Assembly: GCA_041672465.1 (NCBI GenBank)
Contig: JBAYZO010000005.1
Span: forward strand, 4,686-68,685
Direction of reading: 5' to 3'
Source: Eubacteriales bacterium
GTDB lineage: Bacteria > Bacillota > Clostridia > Oscillospirales > CAG-382
Length of the DNA stretch: 64,000 nt
In this document: positions 2,952 to 63,286 of the stretch, piece by piece
Numbering within the stretch: the stretch's first letter is position 1
Layout: each line of letters opens with the position of its first letter
Program-made: the position numbers and the translations under genes
The notes under the pieces: generated by a model
Told to the model about the DNA's origin: nothing
The model's database searches: none
The model's input: the letters and a program-made list of their open reading frames with translations, nothing else

Positions 2952-3039
2952 TAAACATTGCCAGCCTTCCGGGTTTATTTTCGTCTGTGTTAACATTTGT
3001 TGTTTCACGCGCTTAGTATACAGTTAAACGCCCGAAAAG

Positions 3040-3558
3040 TCAACCAAACGTTTTGTTTAATTTGCGAATCTGAACCGAAAGCGGATAAATTAAGAGCCCG
3101 AAAGCGACGTTCCCCGCCGCGTGGATAAGGTCAAAATAAAATCCCGCCCCTATCCACAAAAGCGTGGTTTTTAAGTCATAGCCGAAAAAGAACGCCTGCG
3201 CGGGGGCGTAGAGCGCGCCGAAAGACAAGCCGAAAGCTCCGCAGACGACGGGGTAAACAATCATCGCCCACTTTTTGCCGAGTCCTTTCGGGATAAGCAT
3301 CGTCACCCCCCACAGAATTGCCCAAAGATATAAATAAGGCACCCACCATATGGCAAACCCATATGTCACGCCGGTCAAAAAGACATAAACATATATCGGC
3401 ACAAGAGCTTGAAACCGATAAACAACCGTCAAAAGCATGACAAACATACCAAGCATATGAATGTTTGGCAGCCACTGCGTCAGCAGGTACGACACATACA
3501 TGACTGCGCCGAACATCGCGAAGACGCAATATCTCGCCAGCTTTTTTTTATAAGTCAT
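3040..3558 (-). CDS. ECF-transporter S-component-like membrane protein (CbrT-like, putative cobalamin/corrinoid-specific)
   Basis: 172 aa and about 6 TM helices. Its ATGA start overlaps the stop of the DUF4430 gene. It lies downstream of a cobalamin riboswitch. Confidence 0.5.
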   Translation of the reverse strand: MTYKKKLARYCVFAMFGAVMYVSYLLTQWLPNIHMLGMFVMLLTVVYRFQALVPIYVYVFLTGVTYGFAIWWVPYLYLWAILWGVTMLIPKGLGKKWAMIVYPVVCGAFGLSFGALYAPAQAFFFGYDLKTTLLWIGAGFYFDLIHAAGNVAFGLLIYPLSVQIRKLNKTFG

Positions 3559-3962
3559 TTTGAGTATACAATCTTTATCACGTCGCCGTCCCGGATGACA
3601 AGGGTGTCCACCCCCTCCATGCACATCGCGTCGTTTTGGTAAAACGACCACCACGCGCCGTCAGTAGCGTAATCCGCCGTTATTCCGTCCACGGCTTTGA
3701 CAAAGTAGCCGTTTTTTGTCTCCTCGCCGGTAATCAGGTTGTTTTCAACAAGCGCGCCCTTTAGGATCGCGTGTTTTGTACTAATATTGTAATCCTTAGA
3801 TATGCCGTCCTCATAAACCACGGTAACGGTGATTTTTATGGGGTCGTCGTAAAACTCAAGCTTTTTTTCCGAACATGAGACAAACAGCCCCGAAACAAGA
3901 AACAGCGAGGCAAGGATAAGTAAAAATAATCTTTTTTTCATTTTGTAAAAACATCCTTTCAA
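3555..3962 (-). CDS. DUF4430-domain lipoprotein (transcobalamin-like putative corrinoid binder)
   Basis: Signal peptide with lipobox LFVSC. C-terminal GAWWSFYQND...IRDGDVIKIVYS resembles DUF4430. First gene after the cobalamin riboswitch. Confidence 0.6.
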   Translation of the reverse strand: MKGCFYKMKKRLFLLILASLFLVSGLFVSCSEKKLEFYDDPIKITVTVVYEDGISKDYNISTKHAILKGALVENNLITGEETKNGYFVKAVDGITADYATDGAWWSFYQNDAMCMEGVDTLVIRDGDVIKIVYSK

Positions 3963-3999
3963 AAATTAAATAATTAAAATTGCAAGTCTTTTCTTAAGA

Positions 4000-4347
4000 C
4001 ACAAAAACAGAAGCGCTTCCCGATAGGGAAGCGCGCGATAACAAATGCCGTAAAAAAATAGGCACCGAACGCCGCGCGCCCCCCGTTGCCCGGGGACGGC
4101 TGACATAGCGGCGCGGTAAGCATTCCGACTTAACCGTTTTTATAAAATACCCGCTGAAAAGTTTGATTTTCAGCTTTATTTTATATAACGCGGCTTACGG
4201 TAATGGCTGTTGCGGCGGATTTTCACCGCCATTTCCTTACCCCCGAAAGACTGCCTTAAGCAAAAGTGCCTGACAGCCGCCCGGTTCCGGGTTTTACCCC
4301 GGCGCGCAGCCCAAATTGTAAATACCATGGATCCTTTGGTATACCAT
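4000..4347 (-). promoter_or_regulatory. Cobalamin (B12) riboswitch with terminator expression platform
   Basis: The minus strand reads ...AGGGAAatggcGGTGAAAATCCgccGCAACAGCC..CCGTAAGCC..., then a B12-box-like AAGTCGGAATGCTTACCGCGCC. It ends in the hairpin gcgcttccc/gggaagcgc (4013-4034) followed by TTCTGTTTTTGTG. The boundaries are approximate. Confidence 0.6.
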
Positions 4348-5796: not shown

Positions 5797-6561
5797 CTCC
5801 CCGCGGATTTTCTCAAGCGCGGTTTTTTCAAGCCTTGAAACCTGCGCCTGTGAAATGCCTATTTCCGACGACACCTCGGTTTGGGTTTTTCCGCTGTAAA
5901 ACCTAAGCTTTAATATTTTCTTTTCCCGATCGGTGAGTTTTTTTATTGCCTCCGCCACCGCTATGGTCGTTATCCAGTTTTCGTCCGTGTTGTTCTTGTC
6001 GCTTATCTGGTCCATTACGTAAAGGCTGTCGCCGTTTTCTGAATAAATCGGCTCGTAGAGCGAAATCGGCTCCATTATCGCGTCAAGCGCCGAAGTGACT
6101 TCCTTTTGCGTCAGCCCGAGGGACGACGATATTTCCCCCGGCGTGGGCTCGCGGGAGAGTGACTTTGAAAGCCTGTCCTTTGCCTGAAGCGCCTTGTACG
6201 CCGTGTCTCTTATCGACCTTGAAACCCTGATATGGTTGTCGTCGCGGAGATACCTCCGCAGCTCTCCGATTATCATGGGGACGGCGTAGGTGGAAAACTT
6301 TACTTCCTGCGCCAAATCAAAGTTATCCACCGCTTTTATAAGCCCAATGCACCCCACCTGAAACAAGTCGTCGGGGCAGGCTCCCCTTTGGGTAAAAGAT
6401 TGCAGCACGCTCAGCACCAGCTTGAGGTTTGAGTTAATAAGCTTTTCCCGCGCCTTTTTGTCGCCGTCCCTTGTTCTTTTTAAAAGCTCTCTTTTTTCTT
6501 CTTCGGATATCGTTACTAACTTTGAGGTGTTCACCCCGCAGATTTCCACTTTGTTATACAT
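5791..6561 (-). CDS. sigG: Sporulation sigma factor SigG
   Basis: MYNKVEICGVNTSKL..., DLFQVGCIGLIKAVDNFD, KFSTYAVPMIIGELRRYLRD and GISQAQVSRLEK closely match my recollection of B. subtilis SigG. The start is uncertain (6561, or 6567/6576/6588) and the RBS is poor. Confidence 0.85.
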   Translation of the reverse strand: MYNKVEICGVNTSKLVTISEEEKRELLKRTRDGDKKAREKLINSNLKLVLSVLQSFTQRGACPDDLFQVGCIGLIKAVDNFDLAQEVKFSTYAVPMIIGELRRYLRDDNHIRVSRSIRDTAYKALQAKDRLSKSLSREPTPGEISSSLGLTQKEVTSALDAIMEPISLYEPIYSENGDSLYVMDQISDKNNTDENWITTIAVAEAIKKLTDREKKILKLRFYSGKTQTEVSSEIGISQAQVSRLEKTALEKIRGEL

Positions 6562-6656
6562 AATCAAAATAACCATGCCTTTCGTCACTGCCGACTAAAG
6601 TGTTTGACGGCGAAATTCCATTTTGGCATTAGCCGTAAAGAAAAGCCTTTACTTAA

Positions 6657-30694: not shown

Positions 30695-30770
30695 TGGTGG
30701 GGACTACAGGGCTTGAACCTGTGACCCCCTGCTTGTAAGGCAGGTGCTCTCCCGGCTGAGCTAAACCCCC
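30695..30770 (-). tRNA. tRNA-Val (anticodon UAC) with encoded CCA
   Basis: Cloverleaf folded by hand. Acceptor GGGGGTT/AGTCCCC (2 G-U pairs). D arm GCTC-AGCCGGGA-GAGC. Anticodon arm CCTGC-CTTACAA-GCAGG. T arm ACAGG-TTCAAGC-CCTGT, then ACCA. Confidence 0.9.
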
Positions 30771-31964: not shown

Positions 31965-32999
31965 TTAAAAACATCTCTCTTTTCTGTTTTTCCTGCATTC
32001 CTCGGTTTTTCCGCAGCGGTAGCATATCTCGTTTTCAAGCGGCAAACCCGCGAAAAACGCGTCTATATTCTCAAACGTCGTCTTTGCTATGTTGTCAAGC
32101 GCCTCTTTGGTCAAAAACGCCTGATGGGAAGTTATAAGCACATTAGGCATCGACAAAAGCCTCGCGAGGATATCGTCCTGCATGATATGCCCCGATTTAT
32201 CCTCAAAGAAAATGTCGGACTCCTCCTCATACACGTCAAGGCAGGCGGCGCCGATCTTTTTTTCTTTAATCCCCTCGAGGAGCGCTTCGGCGTCAATGAG
32301 CTGCCCGCGCGAGGTGTTGACGATTATAACCCCTTTTTTCATGGTTTTTATGGTTTGCCTGTTTATCATATGATAATTTTCACTTGTCAGCGGGCAGTGA
32401 AGGGATATAATATCGCTTTTTTCAAACAGCTCGCCGAGATTTACATATTCCGCCTCTATCCCCTGCGCCGGGAATGGGTCAAACGCAAGCACTTTCATGC
32501 CGAAACCCCGGCAAATATCCACAAACACCCTGCCGATCTTGCCCGTCCCGACCACTCCGACCGTTTTGCCGAACAGGTCAAAACCGGTAAGCCCGTTAAG
32601 GCTGAAATTAAAGTCTTTTGTCCTGTTATACGCCTTGTGTATCCGTCTCACCGAAGTTAAAAGCAGCGCCATGGTGTGTTCGGCGACCGCGTAAGGCGAA
32701 TAAGCGGGGACGCGGACTACATGAATTTTCTCAAACGCCGCCCTTACGTCAACATTATTAAATCCGGCGCAGCGGAGGGCGATTAGCTTTACCCCGTACC
32801 CGTACAGCAAATCAACCGTTTCGGCGTCAATGCTGTCGTTAACGAACGCCACCACAACGTCGCTTCCGGCGGCGAGCCCGGCGGTGTCTTTGGTGAGCCG
32901 GGTGTCAAAATATTTAATGATATGCTTTACGCTGTTTATATGCTTTTCAAACGACTCGCGGTCGTAAGGTTTTGTGTCAAACATGGCTATATTTATCAT
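31965..32999 (-). CDS. ldhA: D-isomer-specific 2-hydroxyacid dehydrogenase (D-lactate dehydrogenase-like)
   Basis: MINIAMFDTKPYDRESF, NAD site GVVGTGKIGR, and the catalytic R/E/H pattern (TSRG...; ITSHQAF). It has an extra Cys-rich C-terminal tail. Confidence 0.75.
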   Translation of the reverse strand: MINIAMFDTKPYDRESFEKHINSVKHIIKYFDTRLTKDTAGLAAGSDVVVAFVNDSIDAETVDLLYGYGVKLIALRCAGFNNVDVRAAFEKIHVVRVPAYSPYAVAEHTMALLLTSVRRIHKAYNRTKDFNFSLNGLTGFDLFGKTVGVVGTGKIGRVFVDICRGFGMKVLAFDPFPAQGIEAEYVNLGELFEKSDIISLHCPLTSENYHMINRQTIKTMKKGVIIVNTSRGQLIDAEALLEGIKEKKIGAACLDVYEEESDIFFEDKSGHIMQDDILARLLSMPNVLITSHQAFLTKEALDNIAKTTFENIDAFFAGLPLENEICYRCGKTEECRKNRKERCF

Positions 33000-33070
33000 T
33001 TTATTACACTTCCTTTCTGTTGATACGAAAATTCTTTGATGATTCTGCTTATAAACTACATAAATTTCGA

Positions 33071-33245
33071 GAACCGCAACCTTTTTGATGGTTTCGCTTT
33101 GCAGTTGCTTATTTCGGGAACCGCAACCTTTTTGATGGTCTCGCTTTGCAGCTGCTTATTCCGAGAACCGCAACCTTTTTGATGGTTTCGCTTTGCAACT
33201 GCTTATTCCGGGAACCGCAACCTTTTTTATGGTTTCGGCTTGCCG
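33071..33245. repeat. 47-bp tandem repeat, about 3.7 copies
   Basis: The unit gaaccgcaacctttttgatggtttcgctttgcagttgcttatttcgg starts at 33071, 33118, 33165 and 33212. Confidence 0.9.
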
Positions 33246-33306
33246 AAATTGCGGTTGTTTAAACCGCAAAATAAAAAAGTTGCCATTGAAAGACTTGTCT
33301 TTCAAT
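33233..33306. repeat. Three-hairpin intergenic element, copy A (H1 33233-33248, H2 33249-33269, H3 palindrome 33285-33306)
   Basis: H1 is tttcgg-cttg-ccgaaa. H2 is ttgcggtt-gttta-aaccgcaa. H3 is attgaaagacttgtctttcaat. It matches the reverse complement of 47854-47965. Confidence 0.85.
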
Positions 33307-33340
33307 ATGTTGTTTAAACCGCAAAATCAAAAAGTTGCCC

Positions 33341-33362
33341 ATTGAAAGATTTATCTTTCAAT
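33341..33362. repeat. 22-bp palindrome H3, second copy
   Basis: attgaaagatttatctttcaat with 10-bp perfect arms. It is part of a ~56-bp duplication of 33256-33311. Confidence 0.9.
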
Positions 33363-33372
33363 GATGTTGCCG

Positions 33373-33394
33373 ATTGAAAGATTTATCTTTCAAT
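33373..33394. repeat. 22-bp palindrome H3, third copy
   Basis: attgaaagatttatctttcaat. Confidence 0.9.
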
Positions 33395-33565
33395 CATATT
33401 ATATATGTTAAAATATCAAAAATCAATATAAAATAGTTAACGCACTCAAAAGCCTTTCCTTTAATTGCGCGAAAAGCCAAAAGAATCCTAACTAACCGTT
33501 GCGTAAATCATACCGATATGTTAATATAACTGCTGATAAGCGTAATGTTTTAAGGAGACAGGGAT

Positions 33566-35224
33566 ATGGAAAATTTTGAAGTTAAAATGCTTTCTTCTCT
33601 CTCGAAAGTTTTCCCCGAGGAAATTTACGACAAGCGTGAGATTTCCGCCGGGACTTCGTTTTGCGGGGAGATATATTCGTTTCAGCTCGCCTATCGGCCG
33701 GGCGGCATTGGGAGAGCGCGGGTCAAAGTCAAAGTGGAGTCAGCGCTTCGCGAACATATCCTTTTGTTTGAGGTCGAAAACGCGCCGTCTCTCCTCCCCG
33801 CTTACCCCGAGAGCCGCGACGGCGATTACCTTAAAACTTCCCCCGGGCTTTACCCCGATATACTAAATCCGCTGCCGGAATCCCCGGCGCTCACCGCGGT
33901 AAACAACGTCTGGAAAAGCCTTTGGGTTATGGTAAACGTCCCTGAAGGTCACCGCGGCGGTGAAATACCCATAACCATAACATTTGAGGACTGCGGGGGA
34001 AATAAATCCGTTTTCTGGACGGGAACCTTTACCCTTGGAGTGATTGGCGCCCCGCTCCCCGAAAACGAGCTTTTTTGCACCGAATGGTTCCACTGCGACT
34101 GCCTTGCCGACTACTACGGCGCGAAAGTGTTCTCGGGAGATCACTGGCGGATTATTGACAATTACCTTAAAAACTATGTCATGTTCGGGATGAACACGCT
34201 CCTCACCCCCGTCTTCACCCCGCCGCTTGACACCGCGGTAGGCGGCAGCCGAACGACGGTTCAGCTTGTTAAAGTTACCCAAAACGGGGGGGATTATTCG
34301 TTTGACTTCACCCTCCTTAAAAAGTTTATTGAAACGGCTAAGCGCCGCGGGATAAAAGCGTTTGAGGTTTCCCATTTGTTTTCCCAATGGGGGGCGGCTT
34401 TCGCGCCGAAAGTCATGGCGTTTGACGAACAAGGCGGGGAAAAACAGCTCTTCGGCTGGGGGACGCCCGCTCTTTCTTTTGAATATAAAGAATTTTTAGG
34501 AGCCTTTCTACCAAAACTAAAACGCTTTTTAAGCGATATCGGCGTTTTTGAGCAGAGCTTTTTCCATATTTCCGACGAGCCGAATAATAAATCTATCGAA
34601 AGCTACTCATCGGCGAAAAAAGTCGTAAGCTCCGCTTTGGGGGGCGGAAAAATTATCGACGCGGTTTCGGAATACCCTTTTTATGAAAAAGGACTTGTCG
34701 ACAATATCGTGGCGGCAAACGACAGAATAGACGAATTTATTGAAAAGGGCGCGAAGAATCTGTGGACATACTACTGCTGCGGGCAGACAAGGCTTGTCAG
34801 CAACCGCTTTATGGCAATGCCGTCGTACCGCAACCGAATTTTGGGCGTTCAGATGTTTCGTCACGACGTCAAGGGTTTTCTCCACTGGGGATATAATTTC
34901 TGGAACAGCATGCTGTCTCTTTTCCCGATAGATCCCTACCGCGTCACCGACGCGGACGGCGCTTTCCCCTCCGGCGACGCGTTTTTGGTTTACCCGGGGA
35001 AAGACAAAACCGCCGTACCCTCGATAAGGCAGGTAGTTTTTAACGAGGCGCTTCAGGATTACAGAGCGTTGTCCCTCTACCGCGCCCTGTACGGCGGGGA
35101 GGCGGCCGAGCGGAAAGTCGATACGCTCTTCGGTAACCTTTCTTTTAAAGAATACCCAAAAACCCCGGAGAATTTGATTTTGGGGAGAGAGAGCCTAAAC
35201 CGCGATATCGCTTCCCGTTTATAA
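33566..35224 (+). CDS. DUF4091-domain protein (GH123-like putative glycoside hydrolase)
   Basis: SLSKVFPEE..., TEWFHCDCLADYY, QLVKV, SHLFSQWGAAFAPK, FHISDEP and GFLHWGYNFW match the DUF4091 pattern as recalled. Confidence 0.6.
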   Translation: MENFEVKMLSSLSKVFPEEIYDKREISAGTSFCGEIYSFQLAYRPGGIGRARVKVKVESALREHILLFEVENAPSLLPAYPESRDGDYLKTSPGLYPDILNPLPESPALTAVNNVWKSLWVMVNVPEGHRGGEIPITITFEDCGGNKSVFWTGTFTLGVIGAPLPENELFCTEWFHCDCLADYYGAKVFSGDHWRIIDNYLKNYVMFGMNTLLTPVFTPPLDTAVGGSRTTVQLVKVTQNGGDYSFDFTLLKKFIETAKRRGIKAFEVSHLFSQWGAAFAPKVMAFDEQGGEKQLFGWGTPALSFEYKEFLGAFLPKLKRFLSDIGVFEQSFFHISDEPNNKSIESYSSAKKVVSSALGGGKIIDAVSEYPFYEKGLVDNIVAANDRIDEFIEKGAKNLWTYYCCGQTRLVSNRFMAMPSYRNRILGVQMFRHDVKGFLHWGYNFWNSMLSLFPIDPYRVTDADGAFPSGDAFLVYPGKDKTAVPSIRQVVFNEALQDYRALSLYRALYGGEAAERKVDTLFGNLSFKEYPKTPENLILGRESLNRDIASRL

Positions 35225-37660: not shown

Positions 37661-38083
37661 GTGGGAGTTATGGATAAAAAACCAAACGAATTTATTCGGT
37701 TTATTAAGTTCGGCTTGTTTTCGGCCTCGGCGGGGTTGGTTGAAACAGCCTTGTTTTATCTGTTGGGGCTGTTCCCCGGCATAAATTACTGGCTTTGTTA
37801 TATGCCGGCTCTTATTGTCTCGGTGATTTGGAACTTTACCCTCAACAGGCGGTTTACCTTTAACAGTTCGTCAAACGTACCCCGCGCGATGTTTAAAACT
37901 TTCGCTTTTTACGCCGTGTTTATTCCTGTCTCCACGGTTTTGGGCGAAAAACTTGCCGCGGCGTACAAAGCCTATCCCGCGGCGGACGATATTATCTTCT
38001 TTACCACCCTCATTATAAACTTTGTGTTGGAATTCCTTTATCAAAGGCTTTATGTGTTCAGAGGGCAAACGGATAACAGATAA
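37661..38083 (+). CDS. GtrA-family membrane protein
   Basis: 4 TM helices and the WNFTLNRRFTF motif. Confidence 0.65.
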   Translation: MGVMDKKPNEFIRFIKFGLFSASAGLVETALFYLLGLFPGINYWLCYMPALIVSVIWNFTLNRRFTFNSSSNVPRAMFKTFAFYAVFIPVSTVLGEKLAAAYKAYPAADDIIFFTTLIINFVLEFLYQRLYVFRGQTDNR

Positions 38084-38117
38084 AGATAAAAGATAAGAGA
38101 TAAGAGATAAGAGAAAT
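38079..38117. repeat. Homopurine (GATAAGA)n tract
   Basis: gataacagataaagataaaagataagagataagagataagagaaatgg. It shares AAGATAAGAGATAAGAGA with 50554-50597. Confidence 0.85.
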
Positions 38118-47524: not shown

Positions 47525-47854
47525 ATGGATGAAAAAGCCGCAAGGCGGGGCGAGATAGCGGGACTGTTTGACATTTATTCCCCGCTGCTTTCAGAAAGAC
47601 AGCAGCAGGCGACTGAAATGTATTATATTGACGACCTCTCGCTGTCTGAAATTTCAGAAAACCTTAGCATAACAAGGCAGGGGGCGCGGAGTTTAGTCGC
47701 CCGAGGGGTGGAACTGCTGATGTTTTTTGAAGACAGCCTTGGGTTTTCCCGCAAAGAAAACGAGGCGCGGAGCGCGGCGCAAAAAATAAAAGAATGCGGA
47801 GTCAGCGGAACGGCGCTCGCCGAAGCTGAAAAAATATTAAAATTGTTCGGTTAA
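47525..47854 (+). CDS. ylxM: YlxM/UPF0122 putative DNA-binding protein
   Basis: LFDIYSPLLSERQQQATEMYYIDDLSLSEISENLSITRQGAR, located upstream of ffh. Confidence 0.75.
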   Translation: MDEKAARRGEIAGLFDIYSPLLSERQQQATEMYYIDDLSLSEISENLSITRQGARSLVARGVELLMFFEDSLGFSRKENEARSAAQKIKECGVSGTALAEAEKILKLFG

Positions 47855-47965
47855 TTGAAAGACAAGTCTTTCAATGTTTATCTGCATAAAAAGGAATTTT
47901 AATAAGCAAATTTTTGATTTTGCGGTTTAAACAACCGCAATTTCGACAAGTCGAAACCATCAAAA
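47854..47965. repeat. Three-hairpin intergenic element, copy B, inverted relative to copy A (H3 47854-47875, H2 47920-47940, H1 47941-47956)
   Basis: The reverse complement aligns with 33196-33306. H3 is identical, H2 is identical, and H1 is tttcga-caag-tcgaaa. Confidence 0.85.
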
Positions 47966-48073
47966 ATATTGCGCTCCCTCAATTCGCAAGCAATTAAAAA
48001 TGAATTTTATAACCGATTAAAAGCAAACTAAATATTAAAATTTATATATCGTTTGAAAGGACTATTTATATAA

Positions 48074-50010: not shown

Positions 50011-50032
50011 ATTGAAAGACAAGTCTTTCAAT
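50011..50032. repeat. 22-bp palindrome H3, solo copy
   Basis: attgaaagacaagtctttcaat, 2 nt after the KH gene stop and 8 nt before the rimM TTG. Confidence 0.9.
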
Positions 50033-50040
50033 GGCATATT

Positions 50041-50553
50041 TTGGAAAGAAACGGTTTTAAAGTGAAACATTTTATCGAGGCGGGGAGACTTAACTCCCCC
50101 CGCGGAATAAAAGGCGAGATAAGATTCACCTGCTATTGCGACTCGCCGGAATTTCTTCGCGGGGTTAAAACTTTATACCTTGACGAAAAGGGCGAGAAAA
50201 GCCTTGAGGTTGTATCCTACCGCCCGACTATTCCCACCCTTATTTTTAAAGGTTATGAGAGCAGGGAGAACGCTTACCTGCTGGCGGGGAGAACAGTTTA
50301 TTTTAACCGGAATGACGTCGCTCTGCCGGACAGAGCTTTTTACTTCTGCGACCTTATCGGCGAGGACGCATATGACGGGCAAACGGGGAAAAAAATCGGC
50401 GTGGTTAAGGATGTCGAGGAAATCTCCGGGAAGTTTTATTATATTATTACCGGCGAAAAATCCTACCGCGTCCCCGCTGTGGAAGACTTCGTGCCGTTCG
50501 CTTCCCCCGGCGAGGGGGTAAAGGTTAAGGGGATTGAAGAGCTTGAAATATAA
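50041..50553 (+). CDS. rimM: 16S rRNA processing protein RimM
   Basis: GRLNSPRGIKGEIRF plus a C-terminal PRC barrel. The start may be TTG 50041 or GTG 50062. Confidence 0.85.
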   Translation: MERNGFKVKHFIEAGRLNSPRGIKGEIRFTCYCDSPEFLRGVKTLYLDEKGEKSLEVVSYRPTIPTLIFKGYESRENAYLLAGRTVYFNRNDVALPDRAFYFCDLIGEDAYDGQTGKKIGVVKDVEEISGKFYYIITGEKSYRVPAVEDFVPFASPGEGVKVKGIEELEI

Positions 50554-50597
50554 GGAAAGATAAGAGATAAGAGAGAAGAGAGAAGAGAGAAAAGATA
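50554..50597. repeat. Homopurine (GATAAGA/GAGAAGA)n tract
   Basis: ggaaagataagagataagagagaagagagaagagagaaaagat. It shares a 17-mer with 38079-38117. Confidence 0.85.
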
Positions 50598-63051: not shown

Positions 63052-63057
63052 AAAGGC

Positions 63058-63203
63058 GCAGAGTAAAAAAATTTGCGTATGGCGTATGGTTTTATTCAAA
63101 CTGTATTGTAGTGCTCCGCGAACGGGGAGTTGACGCGGGGACGAAGTGAAGCTTACCACAAAAAAATGGTTGCTTCCGCGGTAAATTTTTTGCATCCCGC
63201 TGT
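63058..63203 (+). promoter_or_regulatory. THF (folT-motif)-like riboswitch with an enlarged internal region
   Basis: The 5' side GCAGAGTA-AAAAAAATTT-GCGT and the 3' side CCGCGGT-AAATTTTTT-GCATCCCGCTG parallel the recalled THF aptamer (GGAGAGUAG-AUGAUUC-GCGU ... GCGCGGU-GAAUCAU-UGCAUCCGCUCC). An internal GGGGACGAAG is also present. Confidence 0.55.
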
Positions 63204-63286
63204 AAAAGGCGTGTTGTTTGTCAACACGTCTTATAACGGATATTTGCTCTCTGCACCATCGTAAAAAAACGAAAGGTGTATTTTTT

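Follow-up and report, generated by a model that had tools for sequence, protein, structure and literature searches.

The region upstream of ldhA in this member of the Eubacteriales raises the question of whether its dense field of repeats is a control site for the gene that follows, or something else. Within the 64 000-nucleotide stretch analysed here (the window), 566 bp separate a D-2-hydroxyacid dehydrogenase gene, ldhA (31965-32999, minus strand), from a GH123_cat gene (33566-35224, plus strand; PF13320), called DUF4091 in an earlier note on this DNA. That note described tandem repeats, hairpins and palindromes in the gap and read them as a modular regulatory or structured element. The modular and structured parts of this description hold; the part that would make it a regulatory device of ldhA does not. 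Our preferred reading, held with moderate confidence, is that the field is one copy of an undescribed, non-autonomous, modular interspersed repeat family of Clostridia, comparable to BOX, ERIC or MITE. A dedicated control site or operator for ldhA is not supported, because the family precedes unrelated housekeeping genes, is missing from ldhA orthologues that keep the promoter, and comes and goes between strains.

Composition of the repeat field

Tandem Repeats Finder places a 47 bp unit, repeated 3.7 times, at 33064-33237 (92 % matches, score 292), a 55 bp unit repeated 2.1 times at 33254-33369, and a 32 bp unit repeated 1.9 times at 33334-33394. The 22 bp palindrome ATTGAAAGAyttrTCTTTCAAT has exact matches at 33285, 33341 and 33373, with none expected from 100 shuffles, and the two hairpins reported previously, H1 and H2, are at 33233-33248 and 33249-33269. 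The tandem repeats, both hairpins and all three palindromes are therefore present as the earlier note described. The 566 bp region is identical in three independent metagenome contigs, therefore the repeat field is not an assembly artefact.

Read in the sense of ldhA, on the minus strand, these repeats resolve into an element with three modules: a 5′ hairpin (P0), which is the palindrome; an optional three-way junction, in which a stem (P1) surrounds H2 and H1; and a 3′ tail or Shine–Dalgarno block. P0 is a hairpin of 9–10 bp with the form TGAAAG(A)-TAAA-(T)CTTTCA, and at ldhA it stands immediately before the junction. The closing stem P1, which had been overlooked, pairs GCAACTTTTTTAT with ATAAAAAAGGTTGC and encloses both hairpins, leaving almost no unpaired bases at the junction. 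Each 47 bp unit reproduces the 3′ strands of H1 (P3) and P1, followed by the element tail, and the 55 bp duplication is P0 plus the 5′ half of the three-way junction. A covariance model of the family, described below, matches 33219-33309 at 54.7 bits. From the promoter to the start codon, the features are as follows.

33398-33426, minus strand: host ldhA promoter, TTGATT, 17 nt, TATAAT (promoter scan, 10 of 12 matches); arrangement kept in the element-free loci L071, L072 and L074
33373-33394, minus strand: P0 copy 3, the outermost, TAAA loop in the ldhA sense (exact match; 32 bp tandem repeat ×1.9)
33341-33362, minus strand: P0 copy 2, TAAA loop (exact match; tandem repeat)
33309-33340, minus strand: truncated duplicate of the 5′ half of the junction, comprising the P1 5′ strand and the H2 5′ arm (55 bp duplication ×2.1)
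33285-33306, minus strand: P0 copy 1, CAAG loop, with the complete three-way junction directly after it (exact match)
33217-33283, minus strand: three-way junction, P1 33271-33283/33217-33230, P2 (H2) 33249-33269, P3 (H1) 33233-33248 (folding, covariation)
33064-33237, minus strand: 47 bp tandem array ×3.7, a variable-number repeat within the element (Tandem Repeats Finder)
33000-33063, minus strand: remaining leader with the host Shine–Dalgarno block AGAAAGGAA (33011-33019), ldhA ATG at 32999 (sequence)

The outermost palindrome begins 4 nt past the -10 box of ldhA, which puts the expected transcript start at or within the hairpin. P0 copy 3 is therefore the predicted 5′ end of the ldhA mRNA, which would gain a highly structured leader of roughly 390 nt starting at the hairpin. 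Such a leader could alter the stability or translation of the mRNA. On the plus strand, at 33374-33402, TTGAAA in palindrome copy 3 and TATTAT 17 nt downstream make up a promoter-like sequence (10 of 12 matches) facing the GH123 gene, which may be fortuitous.

Two further copies in the window

A second copy precedes ffh, where the earlier note had already seen the same order of modules, and a third, short copy precedes rimM. The palindrome of the latter, at 50011, is the fifth in the window and had been overlooked.

47854-48036, plus strand: second copy, upstream of ffh; P0 47854-47875, linker, three-way junction 47906-47972, tail
50011-50061, plus strand: third copy, short form, upstream of rimM; P0 50011-50032, 3′ Shine–Dalgarno block GGAAAGAAACGGTTTTAAA

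At ffh, P0 overlaps the stop codon of ylxM, H2 is present as an exact copy at 47920-47940, and H1 carries a compensatory G-C to A-T change. The 73 nt from 47906 to 47978 are 88 % complementary to 33211-33283, with the same order relative to the downstream gene. At rimM, P0 starts 2 nt past the stop codon of a KH-protein gene and the block GGAAAGAAACGGTTTTAAA, identical to the family Shine–Dalgarno block at 15 of 19 positions counted by eye, adjoins the rimM GTG at 50062. This block is part of the element, because empty sites have no room for it; at ldhA and ffh the Shine–Dalgarno sequence is the host's own. A search of the window with the covariance model found no copies beyond these three. 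The order of modules relative to the downstream gene is kept at all three loci and in 39 of 42 model-oriented copies elsewhere, in agreement with the earlier view that the field is not random low complexity.

Differences between strains

Comparisons of orthologous sites show that the element is gained and lost. The ldhA orthologues at 75–78 % identity (L071, L072/L073 and L074) are element-free and retain the promoter, with TTGATT, a spacer and TATAAT or TATACT, followed by a short leader with the Shine–Dalgarno block AACAGAAGGGA (AACAGAAGGGA / ACGGAAAGGA in L072 and L074). At ffh, strain L079, in which Ffh is 99 % identical, has an empty site: its ylxM–ffh gap is only 37 nt, compared with which the window has about 182 nt extra, inserted precisely where the ylxM stop codon meets the host leader. 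In the same strain the rimM site, occupied by the short form in the window, carries P0 and then the start of a three-way junction. Relatives at 80–83 % identity (L080-L082) have the element at neither site: ylxM and ffh are 11–17 nt apart there, and the KH-protein gene and rimM 2–4 nt. Likewise, an element is present ahead of rplI in L066 and missing in this window. A lookup of the KH-protein gene for further strains returned only the same strain, and the ylxM open reading frame (ORF) as called has no record.

Repeat number also differs between strains, a comparison that the earlier note had proposed. Strain L070, in which LdhA is 99 % identical, has two P0 copies compared with three in the window, and its array contains 47/49 bp units repeated 4.7–5.3 times (about five) with two alternating spacer types, compared with 47 bp units repeated 3.7 times. 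At ldhA the element lies immediately downstream of the conserved promoter and was then amplified locally, P0 to three copies and the 3′ half of the junction to the 3.7 copies of the 47 bp array. Presence/absence polymorphism at orthologous sites, as in MITEs, and an internal module in variable tandem number, as in BOX elements, are both seen here. A riboswitch or other gene-specific leader is not indicated, given the diverse downstream genes and the absence of the element from orthologues of ldhA, ffh, rimM and rplI.

Position of the element in operons and leaders

The orientation of each copy was set by the covariance model, independently of the genes. Within 90 nt after the element, an ORF starts on the same strand in 39 of the 42 assessable copies; two are followed by a terminator-like hairpin and no gene, and a divergent start on the P0 side is found for only 4. 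At about two-thirds of palindrome loci a same-strand upstream ORF, in the element sense, ends within about 50 nt of P0. Sixteen of these ORFs have their stop codon inside the palindrome, as the TGA or the loop TAA, and for another 8 it lies at most 8 nt upstream. Of 58 copies, 27 have a Shine–Dalgarno core no more than 20 nt before P0, compared with 8 % of background windows; when the element was excised in silico from the 23 of these in which the right end could be located, the distance from this Shine–Dalgarno sequence to the start codon was mostly 4–9 nt.

Copies fill transcribed gaps, from an upstream stop codon or promoter -10 region to the next gene start, nearly always in the sense orientation. 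The genes that follow have no common function and encode L9, LeuD, ATP synthase c, an ABC ATPase, RapZ, GlgA, Maf, a CCA-adding-type nucleotidyltransferase (PolyA_pol family), AdoHcyase and DAP dehydrogenase, in addition to LdhA, Ffh and RimM. The earlier note would have abandoned a regulatory reading if the palindrome were random with respect to genes and strands, or if copy number were hypervariable with no effect on expression. Placement is strongly non-random; repeat numbers, on the other hand, are hypervariable.

A block resembling GAAAGGnATGGT(C/T)A also stands ahead of start codons without a palindrome, in the window at 6540-6585 and 2955-2985 (both minus strand) and elsewhere at L017 3018, L019 888, L037 176 and L029 2369. 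It may be a common extended Shine–Dalgarno form of these bacteria. AGAAAGGA pairs with the 16S rRNA 3′ tail UCCUUUCU.

Distribution and novelty of the family

In a scan of one genome per species, which extended the search for the 22-mer beyond the locus as the earlier note had suggested, the sequence was found in 66 DNA stretches. The sequence examined comprised 64 kb of this genome and 8 kb pieces of the others. At least eight further metagenome-assembled genomes of Clostridia carry the element in several copies, upstream of unrelated housekeeping genes; the 22-mer accounts for 17 stretches in JAQWDK01, for 8 in JAEWWT01 and for 5 in each of DCGL01, URCP01 and CAZDWM01. The layout in these genomes is constant: often AAG, then P0 and C; the optional three-way junction; AGAAAGGAnTGGTCAT; and the gene start codon. 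In most genomes the 3′ tail closes with this extended Shine–Dalgarno block, usually followed by 4 nt before the start codon. The sequence of the three-way junction varies from genome to genome, and the P0 loop, in the element sense, is TAAA in most copies and TTTA in only five.

The covariance model was built from a 12-sequence seed with a manual structure, and retrieves 43 long-form copies. With MAFFT and RNAalifold, 30 copies yielded P0 alone, the stems being misplaced in the sequence alignment. Sub-families with another 5′ hairpin (GTGAAAA-TAAA-TTTTCAC and similar) and another junction share genomes with the canonical form. Copies of the variant-hairpin sub-families are located as follows.

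L050 4853-4970: variant-hairpin copy
L020 1767-1881: variant-hairpin copy
L064 7170-7284: variant-hairpin copy
L037 4527-4620: variant-hairpin copy
L045 609-726: variant-hairpin copy

The family appears to be undescribed and widespread. Against Rfam 15, only a tRNA and a tetrahydrofolate (THF) riboswitch matched in the whole window, a permissive scan of 32900-33650 gave nothing near any gathering score, and fifteen canonical loci gave lysine riboswitches only, away from the element. A literature search with the 22-mer and its sub-strings found no paper containing the sequence. A metagenome scan with the CAAG-loop variant gave three unrelated coding-sequence matches, and did not return the window organism's own sites.

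Occurrences of the 22-mer in Psychromonas (L015, L023, L027, L051 and L062) and Patescibacteria (L055) were set aside, since they are in rRNA-operon spacers and have unrelated flanks; they look like independent occurrences. An association with phages was also dropped, viral contigs having given one bona fide copy and three chance palindromes. The bona fide copy, on the predicted viral contig IMGVR_UViG_3300027985_001713 (L084 7166-7300), is a complete long form with P0, junction, Shine–Dalgarno block and ATG.

Conservation of pairing

In the alignment of the 43 long-form copies, 93.5 % of cells are paired, compared with 34–53 % when the partners are slid, and 29 of 35 base pairs show compensatory changes; the alignment was fitted to the model and hence favours the structure. 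Strain L070 provides a further example, with GCGGTT/AACCGC in H2 changed to GCAGTT/AACTGC. The sub-families open with different hairpins, GTGAAAA-TAAA-TTTTCAC, CTGAAAA... or GCTTGAAAA..., and retain the pairing, therefore P0 covaries too. Leaders fold more stably than their shuffled sequences at both ldhA (z = −6.9) and ffh (z = −3.4).

Within P1–P3, G-U cells (30) are no commoner than A-C cells (32), and the two strands fold alike as DNA (−20.7 and −21.1 kcal/mol). Complementarity is therefore kept on both strands. A structure at the DNA level accounts for this better than sense-strand selection on an RNA, and so does a very recent origin of the copies. UNCG tetraloops were dropped as an RNA signature, most of the loops concerned being triloops. 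P0 is not an intrinsic terminator by its sequence, having only 2–3 G-C pairs, depending on the copy, and no proper T run after it. A terminator scan of the ldhA locus gave four matches, P0 copies 2 and 3 and H1, with weak tails, and one within the ldhA gene; at the ffh locus it gave none.

Origin of the element and alternative explanations

If the family is a non-autonomous repeat, copies may spread or be exchanged at the DNA level through the hairpin and junction structures in single-stranded DNA, perhaps with a hypothetical mobilising enzyme acting in trans. Selection would then retain only those copies that are harmless to flanking genes. P0 would supply stop codons, TGA in the 5′ arm and TAA in the loop, and the 3′ block a ribosome-binding site; the element could thus survive in leaders and in intercistronic gaps, since reading frames from upstream stop at its 5′ end and a ribosome-binding site is restored at its 3′ end. 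Tandem arrays such as that at ldhA would change by slippage or unequal recombination.

Several observations weigh against this reading. No transposase or terminal inverted repeats were found in the 64 kb window or the 8 kb pieces of other genomes; the ends are P0 and the tail or Shine–Dalgarno block, and P1, the one long inverted repeat, lies within the element. A comparison of the filled (window) and empty (L079) junctions at ffh, the one clean pair, shows no target-site duplication. Since the search started from the 22-mer, part of the conservation that this sequence seems to show between genomes reflects ascertainment, and the survey covered pieces of genomes. Selfish repeats seldom have so nearly absolute a sense orientation or so exact a fit to stop and start codons, and both could reflect a host function at the RNA level. 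A 3 bp 'CAG' that flanks P1 in some JAQWDK copies was considered as a target duplication and rejected, being inconsistent across copies.

A related explanation, possible though rather unlikely, is that the family is mobile and adapted to, or targeted at, translation starts, inserting between a stop codon or Shine–Dalgarno sequence and the next start. The stop codons at the 5′ end and the extended Shine–Dalgarno block at the 3′ end would then permit colonisation of essential-gene operons without polar damage, and the perfectly Watson–Crick hairpin with the three-way junction would be the single-stranded-DNA substrate of the mobilising enzyme.

The main rival holds that the element is a leader or intercistronic cassette selected by the host as RNA, with P0 and the three-way junction acting as a 5′ stabiliser or processing insulator on the mRNA; this is possible, and we think it rather unlikely. 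A hairpin at the 5′ terminus blocks decay that depends on the 5′ end, like the 'roadblocks' against RNase J1 in Bacilli, and the 3′ block might equip the downstream gene with a ribosome-binding site of its own, making that gene independent of the one upstream. Such a cassette is favoured by the orientation bias (39 of 42 copies in sense), by P0 lying 4 nt past the ldhA -10 box, where the transcript would start at the hairpin, and by leaders that fold far more stably than shuffled sequences at ldhA and ffh. P0 abutting or overlapping upstream stop codons, the covariation of the structure and the predominance of the TAAA loop on the sense strand also suit it, and 5′ stabilising elements are well documented in Bacilli (PMC3997798). 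However, the balance of G-U and A-C cells is not what sense-strand selection on an RNA would give, the presence of the element differs between strains with 99 % identical proteins, close relatives are without it, the copy number of its modules is hypervariable, and two copies precede terminator-like hairpins instead of genes. The G-U and A-C result and the turnover at strain level argue against the cassette being essential.

It is very improbable that ldhA is controlled through the palindromes, either as operators bound by a dimeric regulator or as a transcription block, with the other repeats accessory. A palindrome of 22 bp with arms of 9–10 bp does resemble the site of such a dimer, the ldhA promoter is closely followed by three copies, and the half-site TGAAAG resembles that of the CcpA cre-box, from which its spacing differs by 4 bp. 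Yet most copies are within operons, between stop and start codon, with no promoter nearby; the downstream genes form no functional group; ldhA orthologues retain the promoter without any palindrome; and the variant hairpins alter the sequence of the arms and keep the pairing, so that the arms covary and are not conserved. A translated mini-gene or coupling unit of the MIRU type, in which the TTG at the start of P0, following a Shine–Dalgarno-like sequence, would open a short ORF coupling the genes, is given just as little credence. The enrichment of Shine–Dalgarno cores upstream of P0 noted above (mostly 3–8 nt before it, where measured) and the first codon of P0, which is TTG, GTG or CTG in most variants, would fit such a unit, and ATT GAA AGA TAA is a three-codon ORF. 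The TTG-frame ORF is not conserved, however: it ends anywhere from 3 to more than 500 codons downstream, and only in about 11 of 61 copies does it join the downstream gene, for which reason the hypothesis of a small protein was rejected. In addition, no peptide is conserved beyond MKDKSFN, the three copies in the window have no upstream Shine–Dalgarno sequence, and where one is present it could equally well be the original ribosome-binding site of the host gene.

Significance and other features of the window

An interspersed repeat family of this kind would add a widespread, unannotated component to the genomes of uncultured gut, digester and other environmental Clostridia. Its copies may be misread as riboswitches, operators or small genes, and they swell the 'intergenic' space within essential-gene operons (ffh, rimM and rplI). 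For a repeat that inhabits operons, so strict a fit to stop and start codons, combined with a ribosome-binding site of its own, would be an uncommon solution; if insertion is targeted rather than filtered by selection, this would suggest an insertion mechanism so far undescribed. The variable arrays could serve as strain markers, and the leader may change ldhA expression between strains.

Other repeats and features were observed in the window. A direct duplication of 196 nt (30215-30410/30494-30689; 98 % identical, copies 279 nt apart) lies just upstream of tRNA-Val(tac) (30695-30770, minus strand), and appears to be single-copy in one same-strain contig (L001). Two purine-rich heptamer arrays, GATAAGA ×6.3 at 38072-38114, directly before an ATG at 38117, and AGAGAAG ×5.4 at 50558-50595, between the rimM stop and the trmD start, have a common 26 nt stretch that is 96 % identical. 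In position they resemble the intergenic heptamer direct repeats reported from Beggiatoaceae (PMC4679880). The THF riboswitch aptamer is at 63057-63204 (plus strand), at 47.2 bits against a gathering score of 36. Directly downstream of the element-free ldhA in L072 is a toxin–antitoxin pair of the HepT/MNT type (3545-4224), where the window has another neighbour.

Comparison with known repeat systems

In behaviour, the closest known system is BOX of Streptococcus pneumoniae and S. suis (boxA - boxB(n) - boxC), which consists of small, modular, interspersed intergenic repeats without a transposase of their own (PMC3049150). The internal BOX module measures about 45 bp, and the number of its tandem copies varies and is used in strain typing; the end modules pair to form a stable stem-loop, often transcribed with neighbouring genes (PMC3049150). 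The family described here shares the modular build, the internal tandem module of variable number and the pairing of end modules, and its copies are probably transcribed with their neighbours as well. The modules themselves look unrelated, judged by eye, and the hosts are uncultured Clostridia. The present family differs from BOX also in having a separate 5′ hairpin followed by a three-way junction, and in that nearly all copies are in sense directly ahead of a start codon, many with a Shine–Dalgarno block.

Repeats of the MITE type in transcribed regions include ERIC/IRU of enterobacteria and the Correia elements of Neisseria (PMC3049150). The present elements are likewise non-autonomous, structured, AT-rich and gained or lost between strains, and they probably resemble MITEs in co-transcription, which for MITEs comes with orientation-dependent effects on mRNA (PMC3049150). 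The array at ldhA has a parallel in a MITE of Porphyromonas gingivalis with an internal minisatellite, a tandem array inside the element (PMC4596501). In contrast to MITEs, the inverted repeat P1 is internal and not terminal, the filled and empty ffh sites show no target-site duplication, and no matching insertion sequence is known.

The 5′ mRNA stabilisers of Firmicutes, which include 5′ stem-loops and Shine–Dalgarno-like 'roadblocks' against RNase J1 (PMC3997798), also have a hairpin at the very 5′ end and Shine–Dalgarno-like sequences in a long leader. They are the working analogy if the element has any effect as RNA; however, they are leaders of single genes, whereas this is a dispersed repeat family.

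Like REP/BIME sequences, the repeats associated with RAYT transposases, the family has a short palindrome that is extragenic, transcribed, often near stop codons and of equal structure on both DNA strands. A short conserved 5′ head is also common to both, GTAG in REPs and AAG here. REPs, however, are mostly 3′ of genes and in inverted pairs, whereas these palindromes are 5′ of starts (39 of 42), single or in direct tandem as at ldhA, and joined to further modules. MIRUs are tandem repeats of 40–100 bp in the intercistronic gaps of operons, variable between strains and touching the flanking stop and start codons, and in all of these respects the present repeats are similar. In contrast, MIRUs carry in-frame small ORFs, whereas here there is no conserved reading frame and hairpins dominate. 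The combination of a 5′ hairpin with a three-way junction, a built-in Shine–Dalgarno block and placement almost exclusively in sense, immediately before start codons, sets this family apart from BOX, MITE, REP and MIRU.

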